Below are positions 35,646-36,227 of a DNA stretch of 64,000 bases, in pieces (the stretch's first letter is position 1; the number at the start of each line of letters is the position of its first letter). The DNA is from Eubacteriales bacterium (lineage in GTDB: Bacteria; Bacillota; Clostridia; Oscillospirales; CAG-382), in contig JBMNMA010000007.1 in assembly GCA_050953105.1 (NCBI GenBank), positions 198,923-262,922 on the forward strand, written 5' to 3'. The notes beneath the pieces were generated by a model that saw nothing but the letters and a program-made list of their open reading frames with translations, was not told the origin of the DNA and made no database searches. The translations under genes were made by a program, and so were the position numbers.

Positions 35646-36227
35646 ATGGCAAACTGCAACAACGACGACCTTTTATGCGGGTCGGATTTATGTGATAGAT
35701 CCTGCGAAGACGGGGGATTTACCCTGTTTGGCACAAGAAACCTTCTCCCGCCTTTTCCCCCTATCCCTCCAATCCCGCCCATTCCCCCCGGTCCTCCCGG
35801 GCCTCCCATGCCGCCGCCACCTCCTCCGCCGCCGGCTGTTCCTAACTTTTCCTTTTACTCGGTGCGGAATGCCACAGTGGTGTCGGGGGATAATCTGCCG
35901 TTAAACTTTATATCCGGCAATCCGCTGTCTGTATCAGACAGTACAATCACCCTTCCCAGGGGGAATGTGCTTGTTACCTACTCATTTCAATGCGAAACGG
36001 TAAATAACGTCATATGTGTTGAAACAGTTCCCTACATTAACGGCAACCCACAAACCTTCGGTGCTTTTAGAGCGGTAAGGACTGCGCCCGGCCTTCATTC
36101 CCAGTCATCCGGCGACTTTGTGGTAACATCCGACGGCAACACCACTTTGCAAATAAGGGCAGTTACCGAAACGGGGGTTACAATAAGCGCAATTGCTTTC
36201 GATTTGCTTATTATCAGATACTTTTAA
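35646..36227 (+). CDS. Cys-rich / (X-Pro-Pro)n / BclA-C1q-like C-terminal domain protein (putative spore-surface protein)
   Basis: RBS AAAGGAA. The N-terminus is 'MANCNNDDLLCGSDLCDRSCEDGG'. The tract 'LLPPFPPIPPIPPIPPGPPGPPMPPPPPPPP' follows. The ~125-aa beta-rich C-terminus ending 'ISAIAFDLLIIRYF' resembles BclA-type TNF/C1q-fold domains. Confidence 0.6.
   Translation: MANCNNDDLLCGSDLCDRSCEDGGFTLFGTRNLLPPFPPIPPIPPIPPGPPGPPMPPPPPPPPAVPNFSFYSVRNATVVSGDNLPLNFISGNPLSVSDSTITLPRGNVLVTYSFQCETVNNVICVETVPYINGNPQTFGAFRAVRTAPGLHSQSSGDFVVTSDGNTTLQIRAVTETGVTISAIAFDLLIIRYF
35748..35834 (+). repeat. proline tract with 3-residue X-P-P periodicity
   Basis: (L)PP FPP IPP IPP IPP GPP GPP MPP PPP PPP. Confidence 0.9.

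Follow-up and report, generated by a model that had tools for sequence, protein, structure and literature searches.

A small protein with a proline tract and a TNF/C1q-type head in digester Clostridia: a candidate spore-surface protein

Can a trimeric surface fibre of the BclA type be built on a stalk other than collagen? This question is raised by a small gene at positions 35646 to 36227 (forward strand) of a stretch of 64,000 nucleotides from an uncultured digester member of the Clostridia (contig JBMNMA010000007.1); we call this whole stretch the window. The gene starts with ATG and encodes 193 amino acids, the stop codon being included in the coordinates. An earlier note on this DNA had divided the product into a Cys-rich N-terminus, a strictly 3-periodic proline tract and a C-terminal domain recalling the head of BclA, and had placed the gene alone between two terminators. 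Analysis of the open reading frame (ORF), of shuffled sequences and of RNA folds showed that the three-part anatomy, the periodicity and the monocistronic layout between two real terminators are all correct.

Spore-surface fibres, such as the BclA nap and the fibrillae at the tips of endospore appendages (ENA), govern the adhesion, aggregation and persistence of spores, and to our knowledge they are so far known only as fibres built on collagen triple helices. We lean towards a reading of the product as a BclA/BxpB-class structural protein of the surface, with the outer spore layer (coat or exosporium) as its most likely place. The part of this reading that concerns the fold of the head and its homology is, in our judgement, highly probable.

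The three parts of the protein

The gene itself is supported by the ORF list, by homologues at 49-67% identity in three metagenome-assembled genomes (MAGs) and several metagenomes, and by its pattern of substitution. When it was compared with three homologous loci, the synonymous sites were saturated (proportion of synonymous differences, pS, 0.6-0.98), and the proportion of nonsynonymous differences (pN) was 0.06-0.25 in the N-terminus and 0.21-0.32 in the C-terminal domain. Judged from these comparisons, the gene is therefore real and under purifying selection.

Residues 66-193, that is, the C-terminal 128 residues (35841 to 36224, forward strand), were predicted to be all-beta with nine strands. 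In the AlphaFold2 (AF2) model based on a 5-sequence alignment, the predicted local distance difference test score (pLDDT) of this head was 75-90, and in the model based on a 19-sequence alignment it was ~88-97; the strand topology was identical in both. Foldseek against the PDB returned TNF/C1q jelly rolls at probability 1.0 with target-normalised template-modelling scores (TM-target) of 0.55-0.73. Among them were BxpB (8d02; TM-target 0.66-0.69, 17-18% identity) and the C-terminal domain (CTD) of BclA (1wck, 3twi and 2z5w; TM-target 0.61-0.69, probability 1.0). Further matches at probability 1.0 were ExsFA (7r1m/7r5i), ExsF (9h3d) and the F-BclA CTD (9h38), together with ectodysplasin (EDA), C1q-like proteins, cerebellins (Cbln) and TWEAK. 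The modelled head has the ~130-residue beta-sandwich jelly roll that characterises the C1q/TNF-like superfamily (Pfam clan CL0100). These models give the C-terminal 128 residues the TNF/C1q-type jelly roll that the earlier note had guessed from the pattern of residues. Heads of the TNF, C1q, BclA and BxpB fold trimerise, and by analogy we infer that the head of the window protein forms a homotrimer.

Relatives of the protein are few (P and L numbers below denote the proteins and loci of this analysis). A search of 5.8 billion clusters returned four proteins, one at 99% identity and three at 49-54%, and a scan of one genome per species over 185,579 species found three loci, in Clostridiales bacterium UBA1389 (L001), in an Eubacteriales MAG (L002) and in an uncultured Ruminococcus sp. 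(L003). Near-identical sequence was found in metagenomes of anaerobic digesters, bioreactors and sludge. An exhaustive HMMER search with a profile of the C-terminal domain yielded only 21 relatives among 1.84e9 representatives, and a word-index search with a broad profile of the same domain gained few further members, while proteins annotated with BclA_C stayed out of its reach. Searches of Pfam (E up to 10), NCBIfam and PDB sequences with the single protein and with its profile gave no match beyond low-complexity proline. The family is thus very rare and unannotated, and is covered by no Pfam or NCBIfam model.

The stalks carried by these relatives are of several kinds. P0017, P0018, P0013 and P0027 have Gly-X-Y collagen repeats before the head and Cys-rich N-termini; P0017 matches Pfam Collagen (E 1e-8), and P0027 is named 'collagen-like protein [Clostridia bacterium]' at NCBI, the other named members being called 'hypothetical protein'. 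In P0022, P0010 and P0023, a Cys-rich or Cys/Gly-rich N-terminus is joined straight to the head. When the heads of the window clade were aligned with the heads on collagen or Cys/Gly stalks, hhalign gave 99.1% (E 1e-18, 124 columns), and this result establishes that the head of the window protein is homologous to collagen-borne heads. P0018, P0023 and P0022 in addition showed sub-threshold matches to BclA_C (PF18573; E 0.001-0.06). Because the head is homologous to heads on genuine collagen stalks, the description of the product as a BclA-like protein with a non-collagen stalk stands. Judged from these sequences, the family plan consists of a Cys-rich N-terminus, an interchangeable stalk (collagen, polyproline, Cys/Gly-rich or none) and a TNF-like head.

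P0018 is chromosomal, and its gene divergently adjoins a family 2 glycosyltransferase (GT2) gene (L012, 5740-7636), with a pyruvate:ferredoxin oxidoreductase (PFOR) gene nearby. Glycosyltransferases are also encoded beside bclA genes. The layout of the P0018 gene thus resembles that of bclA loci, and this analogy suggests that the collagen-type members are glycosylated.

The proline tract that separates the head from the N-terminus in the window protein covers residues 34-63 (35745 to 35834, forward strand) and reads LPP FPP IPP IPP IPP GPP GPP MPP PPP PPP, ten triplets in register. All eight non-Pro residues of this 30-aa tract fall in one phase (analytic chance 2.3e-5), and a run of ten XPP triplets was reproduced in only 2 of 200,000 shuffles. 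Two of the ten triplets start with Gly, and the Pfam model Collagen (PF01391) did not match the window protein. A collagen triple helix requires Gly at each third residue. Since F, I, L, M or P stands at the Gly position in this XPP tract, no collagen triple helix is expected. Such proline-rich sequences take the polyproline-II conformation, which extends by ~0.31 nm per residue, and the glycine-poor tract is proposed to act as a polyproline-II spacer. This rise gives an estimated rod length of ~9-10 nm for the window protein and of ~0-10 nm for the family as a whole.

The composition of the tract varies among relatives. The XPP register is retained in five of six close members, and the length of the tract ranges over 14-34 residues. 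It reads FPP IPP IPP IPP in P0002 and FPP FPP FPP IPP in P0004; it consists almost wholly of Pro in L001 and of poly-Pro with (TPP)4 after it in L002, and it is non-periodic in P0003 (PQTSTPTPTPNPQLPTVSP; PTPTPNPQLP). Hydrophobic residues at X are confined to the first 1-5 triplets, and P0003 has none. P0025 and P0006-8, which are encoded at the corresponding position in related genomes, are essentially without a stalk. These positional orthologues have 149-165 aa, and P0006, P0007 and P0008 (163-164 aa) keep three Cys and the motif FGTG-x2-[FL]PP with a stalk of almost nil. The proline tract is an insert of variable length and variable composition between the N-terminus and the head. The earlier note had also suggested that a hydrophobic stripe along the tract could bring three chains together; this idea is not supported, because the stripe is not conserved among relatives, whose tracts are poly-Pro, TPP, non-periodic or missing. 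The proximal [FLI]-P-P stretch, which is common to them with 1-5 repeats, may be part of the anchor rather than of the stalk. A contingency locus that varies by expansion of DNA repeats was considered and rejected, since the only repeat is a 9-bp unit in 2.3 copies and no change in length was seen in the contig of a second sample.

The N-terminal module comprises residues 1-33 (35646 to 35744, forward strand) and is acidic, with C4, C11, C16 and C20 followed by GGFTLFGT. Residues 4-20 read CNNDDLLCGSDLCDRSC, and residues 1-24 contain four Cys, six acidic residues and one basic residue. Its pN is the lowest of the three parts, and no other part of the protein is as well conserved. In the close clade M1, N3, C4, N5, D8, L9, C11-C16, C20, E21, G23-T26 and F28-T30 do not vary, and the alignment of this clade gives the near-invariant pattern M-x-N-C-N-x-D-D-L-[LI]-C-G-S-D-L-C-x3-C-E-[DN]-G-G-F-T-x-F-G-T. 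The distant subfamily retains C4, C16, C20 and FGT, so that the element kept across both subfamilies is C..C...C...GGFT.FGTG-x2-[FL]PP. Both AF2 models predicted residues 1-33 to be disordered (pLDDT <50), and direct inspection found no hydrophobic signal sequence in the N-terminus. By analogy with the systems compared below, the module probably anchors the protein, and a cross-linking role is proposed for it as well.

It had been proposed that LLPPFPPIPP resembles the LPPIPP-containing exosporium-targeting motif of BclA. The form given for the BclA motif itself is right, and is consistent with the proline positions given in PMC12357932. The assignment to the window protein is not supported: the NCBIfam model of the exosporium leader, TIGR03720 (core ..LVGPTLPPIPP..), matched none of six members at E up to 10, in a search whose HMMER filters could lose so short a motif; FGT-RNL-LPPFPP differs from VGPT-LPPIPP by an insertion of 2-3 residues; and P0003 lacks any LPPxPP. 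From its conservation, FGTG-x2-[FL]PP could be a different docking signal. A profile of the 40-aa N-terminus, which is short and has little power, was also searched against 5.8e9 sequences and found no other architectures, only P0028, a frameshifted L001-like copy. P0028 (63 aa, from a contig of the European Nucleotide Archive) loses its frame inside the poly-Pro (CCN) run, ...LLPIPPPPHPLPLRRPRS..., and from the sequence this loss can be attributed either to slippage in the homopolymeric proline-codon tract or to an assembly error.

Transcription unit and neighbouring genes

The intrinsic terminator of the preceding DUF711 gene was located at 35489 to 35520 (forward strand) by terminator scan and RNA fold; its 10-bp stem with U-run at 35489-35513 has a folding free energy (dG) of -14.6 kcal/mol and a z of -3.9. 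This terminator shields the small gene from transcription of the DUF711 gene. The terminator of the small gene itself lies at 36243 to 36282 (forward strand) and has a 13-bp stem, a 9-nt loop and UUUUU; the stem at 36243-36277 that precedes the UUUUU gave a dG of -21 and a z of -4.3. The hairpin 3' of the small gene is kept in L001 and L002, and in L005 the small gene and the regulator gene are separated by 19 nt without a hairpin. At 36235-36282, the terminator hairpin overlaps a sigma-A-type promoter of the Crp/Fnr-like gene that follows (TTGATT, 17 nt, extended -10 TG-T-TATTAT), and the -10 lies within the hairpin loop. The boxes of this promoter, CTTGATTTT and TGnTATTAT, are kept in L001 and L002 like the hairpin. 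The overlap may mean that one element serves as both terminator and promoter, or that the hairpin is regulatory.

Upstream of the start codon, a ribosome-binding site, AAAGGAAA, was read from the sequence at 35629 to 35636 (forward strand), ~10 nt 5' of the ATG, and AAAGGAA is also present in L001 and L003. A promoter scan gave a candidate at 35578 to 35607 (forward strand), CTGACG, 18 nt, TACAAT. The same -10 also admits the reading (G)CATACAAT, and an 'AC' lies 17 nt upstream of it; this combination fits sigma-K/E. The -10 element of mother-cell promoters is CATA...T. The element GCATACAAT (GCATATTAT in L003) is kept 45-61 nt 5' of the ATG in four of four close loci, the spacers having otherwise diverged. 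L001 can be read for sigma-A as TTCACC, 17 nt, TACAAT. Sigma-E and sigma-K share a common -10 and differ in the -35 (ATA versus AC), and in C. difficile bclA1-3 are under sigma-K control (Saujet et al., PMC3789822). In L002 and L003, no AC stands at the proper spacing and the -35 is not conserved, and the motif by itself is not significantly enriched in the window (one found, 0.5 expected). The mother-cell promoter AC-N17-CATACAAT was therefore downgraded, because of the missing -35 in L002/L003, the sigma-A reading, and the TATAAT/TATTAT of distant orthologues. From sequence, the class of the promoter is ambiguous between sigma-A and sigma-K/E.

On the opposite strand, an ORF of 256 aa at 35039-35809 was rejected as almost certainly spurious; it is a Gly-rich mirror image of the Pro codons and overlaps the DUF711 gene. 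Some gene callers report versions of the small protein with 139 aa (start M55) or 116 aa, which fall in the same 90% cluster with the contig intact, and the antisense ORF may explain these shortened calls.

The genes upstream of the small gene encode the beta subunit of oxaloacetate decarboxylase, an ACT-domain protein and the DUF711 protein, and those downstream encode a Crp/Fnr-family regulator, an 833-aa GHL10 protein and a GNAT-SCP2 (Eis-like) acetyltransferase. The regulator gene (36299 to 36931, forward strand; Pfam cNMP_binding and HTH_Crp_2, NCBIfam Fnr/FixK-like) is the next gene in L001-L007. The gene for the GHL10 (YngK/Cwp19-like) protein (36957 to 39458, forward strand; Pfam GHL10) is the second gene downstream in the same loci. 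This protein has an N-terminal signal-like segment, a ~320-aa N-terminal region without a known domain, an acidic Ser/Glu-rich tail and a C-terminal membrane anchor, and the only PDB relative of its GHL10 domain is Cwp19 of C. difficile (5oq2). In L005, the start of the GHL10 gene and the stop of the Crp-like gene overlap. Galperin et al. (PMC3533761) count YngK, the GHL10 member of B. subtilis, among its sporulation genes.

The order of the small gene, the Crp-like gene and the GHL10 gene is kept in L001-L004 and in L005-L007, and the small protein of the latter (P0025, 149 aa) is only 22% identical to the window protein. The neighbours are better conserved than the small protein, at 62% for DinB, 50% for GHL10 (in L005) and 45% for Crp. 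Since the shared order reaches DinB and GltX and the neighbours are better conserved, we regard it as positional orthology in related genomes, and a functional link to the Crp-like and GHL10 genes drawn from gene order was downgraded because of this extended synteny. The comparison shows that the small protein evolves fast, as is typical of surface components.

Elsewhere in the window, at 18295-20556, genes for DUF2953 (ytfI-like), Spore_YtfJ and a dacB-like D-Ala-D-Ala carboxypeptidase follow scpA/scpB. The presence of these Spore_YtfJ, DUF2953 (ytfI) and dacB-like genes means that the organism has sporulation genes, and it is evidence for a spore-forming organism or for one with a spore-forming ancestor. 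The CotH kinase-like protein encoded at 60342-62009 carries a fused type I dockerin domain; spore-coat kinases of this family are unusual partners for a dockerin, and the fusion points to a cellulosome-type lineage. At 53343-57668 (reverse strand), genes for a MoxR-type AAA ATPase, a DUF58 protein and a transglutaminase-like protein of 782 aa stand together in a common module that is unrelated to the finding. Two class-I Glu/Gln-type tRNA synthetase genes stand in tandem at 43563-46858 (547 and 550 aa) and are probably GluRS and GlnRS, or a non-discriminating pair.

A proposed spore-surface role and the rival explanations

How could such a protein reach and serve a surface? Because the protein has no signal peptide, the window contains sporulation genes, and the architecture is like that of BxpB and L-BclA, we place it by analogy on the spore surface, a location that we hold to be slightly more probable than any place away from it. 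For a Firmicute protein without a signal peptide, a surface would be reached most simply by synthesis in the mother cell followed by deposition on the forespore. The heads would trimerise as in TNF, C1q, BclA and BxpB. Since no triple helix is possible, the tracts of the three chains would be stiff polyproline-II rods and would keep the head ~9-10 nm off the anchor point, a distance set at ~0 to 10 nm in the homologues. The disordered acidic N-terminus (C4, C11, C16, C20 and GGFTxFGTG-x2-[FL]PP) would dock into a Cys-rich spore-surface scaffold and become disulfide-linked to it; alternatively, it would knot the three chains together. Two precedents exist. In BxpB, the disordered N-terminus carries the only two Cys of the protein, which are proposed to bond the Cys-rich ExsY lattice (PMC10470788). 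L-BclA joins a Cys motif to a stalk and a BclA-C head; it has no exosporium leader, is made during sporulation only and docks into the Ena3A lumen, and a link between its Cys motif and Ena3A has been proposed (PMC11362473; PMC12357932).

A more far-reaching proposal, which we put forward tentatively and consider more doubtful than probable, is that in one clostridial lineage a glycine-free (X-Pro-Pro)n polyproline-II rod replaced the collagen triple helix in a trimeric spore-surface fibre of the C1q/BclA type. The chains of such a fibre would be held only by the head at one end and by the Cys/FGTG knot at the other. In a bolder variant, included in this proposal, the leader-like segment FGTG-x2-[FL]PP[FI]PP of one trimer might bind in the ExsF-like head of its neighbour, and the result might be self-polymerising, disulfide-locked filaments like beads on a string. 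A replacement of collagen by polyproline on homologous heads is unusual and testable. If it is true, the occurrence of homologous heads on collagen, on polyproline or on no stalk would show that the stalk is an exchangeable spacer, and the protein would offer a compact 193-aa system for studying what keeps a trimeric fibre in one piece when no triple helix is present. Uncultured digester Clostridia could have, in the conserved N-terminal Cys/FGTG motif, a new anchoring signal of the spore surface. The finding would matter much less if the protein were not associated with spores.

Several points weigh against a BclA/BxpB-class protein of the spore surface. The likeness to the heads of BclA, C1q and TNF that the earlier note had pointed out stands at the level of the fold (Foldseek) but not at that of the sequence: hhalign gave 0.2% and 0.8% for the BclA CTD and 5% for BxpB, the latter match spanning only a 29-column strand motif, and the BclA-CTD and BxpB sequences used were verified to be 100% identical to 2r6q_A and 8d02_A, respectively. 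The window protein likewise has no Pfam or NCBIfam match. The search of the viral fold library BFVD returned collagen/C1q-type heads and tail-fibre heads, and the TNF-like head is also common in phage fibres. The Cys are not universal in the distant subfamily, P0011 having none and P0025, P0015 and P0020 one each. The conserved -10, CATACAAT, fits sigma-A TACAAT with TTCACC or CTGACG as the -35 equally well as sigma-K/E, and the distant orthologues have a plain GAGTATAAT or TATTAT at this position. The three metatranscriptomes of a digester study that contain the organism cover it too thinly for a reading of expression.

Four other explanations were weighed against this evidence. The protein could be an adaptor of the basal layer like BxpB/ExsF, a trimer embedded in the outer lattice through its Cys N-terminus and serving as a socket for other proteins, with the proline tract as a mere spacer added in one clade. 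BxpB/ExsFA are indeed the best bacterial structural matches (with the highest identity, 17-19%), the stalkless positional orthologues have 149-165 aa against the 167 aa of BxpB, and BxpB and the window protein both have a disordered Cys-bearing N-terminus; nevertheless, hhalign to BxpB reached only 5%, no candidate leader-bearing partner is known in the organism, and the homologous heads of the collagen-type relatives stand at the far end of their stalks, so that we consider this role rather unlikely. The four Cys raise a different question, namely, whether the motif C-x6-C-x4-C-x3-C is a Zn or Fe-S knuckle that starts or controls oligomerisation instead of a disulfide linker. The invariance of the four Cys in the close clade, with C4, C16 and C20 common to the distant subfamily, speaks for a knuckle, and in a digester organism of the strict-anaerobe type disulfides would form only after release. 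However, the Cys region is predicted to be disordered (pLDDT <50) even with 19 sequences, several orthologues carry 0-1 Cys, and the spacing fits no Pfam metal-binding domain; we regard the knuckle, which would be compatible with a spore-surface protein, as quite unlikely.

A protein unrelated to the spore is also unlikely in our view. It would be a vegetative or stationary-phase sigma-A protein, possibly under the Crp/Fnr regulator, that serves as an adhesin or matrix component and is released or displayed after wall remodelling or autolysis by the adjacent Cwp19-like GHL10 enzyme. Seven of seven loci keep the order of the small gene, the Crp-like gene and the GHL10 gene, including those of the 22%-identity orthologues; the promoter is readable as sigma-A, with TATAAT/TATTAT in the distant orthologues; the gap before the regulator gene in L005 is short and free of a hairpin; and the GHL10 domain is related to Cwp19, which acts in stationary-phase autolysis. 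But the synteny is general and extends to the housekeeping genes for DinB (62% identity) and GltX, a terminator and a separate regulator promoter lie between the small gene and the regulator gene in the window and its close relatives, and a protein without a signal peptide has no obvious export route from a living vegetative cell. A domesticated or remnant head of a phage fibre (the tip by which a tail fibre or tailocin binds its receptor) would account for the many tail-fibre and collagen-like viral heads in the BFVD search and for the matches of the collagen-stalked P0017 and P0018 to PHROG collagen-like tail-fibre families (5073 / 30509; E 5e-16 and 3e-6). The window protein, P0003 and P0025, however, match no PHROG and thus show no membership of a phage tail-fibre family; the neighbours are all chromosomal housekeeping genes with no phage gene nearby, the position is stable across genomes with neighbour-protein identity down to 45-62%, and P0018 too is chromosomal. 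We judge a phage origin of this kind to be very improbable.

Comparison with known systems

Is the protein, then, a member of a known family of surface proteins? The best bacterial structural match of its head is BxpB/ExsFA/ExsF of the exosporium basal layer of the B. cereus group (TM-target 0.65-0.69, 17-19% identity). Like the window protein, these are small (167 aa) and lack a signal peptide, and BxpB has Cys only in its disordered N-terminus, an extended Pro-containing segment and a TNF-like jelly roll, which in BxpB trimerises. The window protein thus agrees with the BxpB/ExsF family in being a small TNF-like protein with a disordered Cys-bearing N-terminus. In contrast, there is no detectable sequence homology to BxpB (hhalign 5%; none in the PDB profile search), the window protein has four Cys in a different, highly conserved motif where BxpB has two, its 30-residue (XPP)10 rod is absent from BxpB, and the lineages are different, uncultured digester Clostridia as opposed to the Bacillus cereus group.

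BclA (of B. anthracis, and BclA1-3 of C. difficile) shares the plan of an N-terminal attachment region, a stalk of variable length and a C1q/TNF-like head. Its head fold matches that of the window protein (TM-target 0.61-0.69), and relatives of the window protein carry Gly-X-Y stalks as BclA does. Unlike BclA, the window protein has a glycine-poor X-Pro-Pro stalk with no Pfam match to Collagen or BclA_C (PF18573) at E up to 10, and its Cys-rich, acidic N-terminus does not match the exosporium leader model. The eukaryotic proteins adiponectin, C1q and the C1q/TNF-related proteins (CTRPs) are also built like the window protein, of a variable N-terminal region, a stalk and a gC1q head, and Cys in their N-terminal region mediate inter-chain or inter-trimer disulfides. 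They have signal peptides and collagen stalks, so that the likeness is one of fold and architecture only.

In its N-terminus the window protein resembles L-BclA, the tip fibrillum of L-ENA in B. paranthracis, and the candidate S-ENA ruffle protein AGE80398.1, both of which have a Cys N-terminal connector, no leader, a stalk and a C1q-like head. For these two proteins, attachment through the N-terminal Cys has been proposed (PMC11362473, PMC12357932). L-BclA differs in its CC doublet, its 173-residue collagen stalk and its operon with ena3A; the window protein has neither a CC doublet nor collagen, and no Ena-type gene (DUF3992 or DUF4183) was found among the Pfam-scanned ORFs of the window. 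The protein therefore lies outside the BxpB, BclA and L-BclA families, because in each comparison at least one of the defining features tested is absent. Taken together with the analogies described above, these comparisons lead us to assign the window protein to the kind of stalked, TNF/C1q-headed spore-surface proteins, within an unannotated family of its own.

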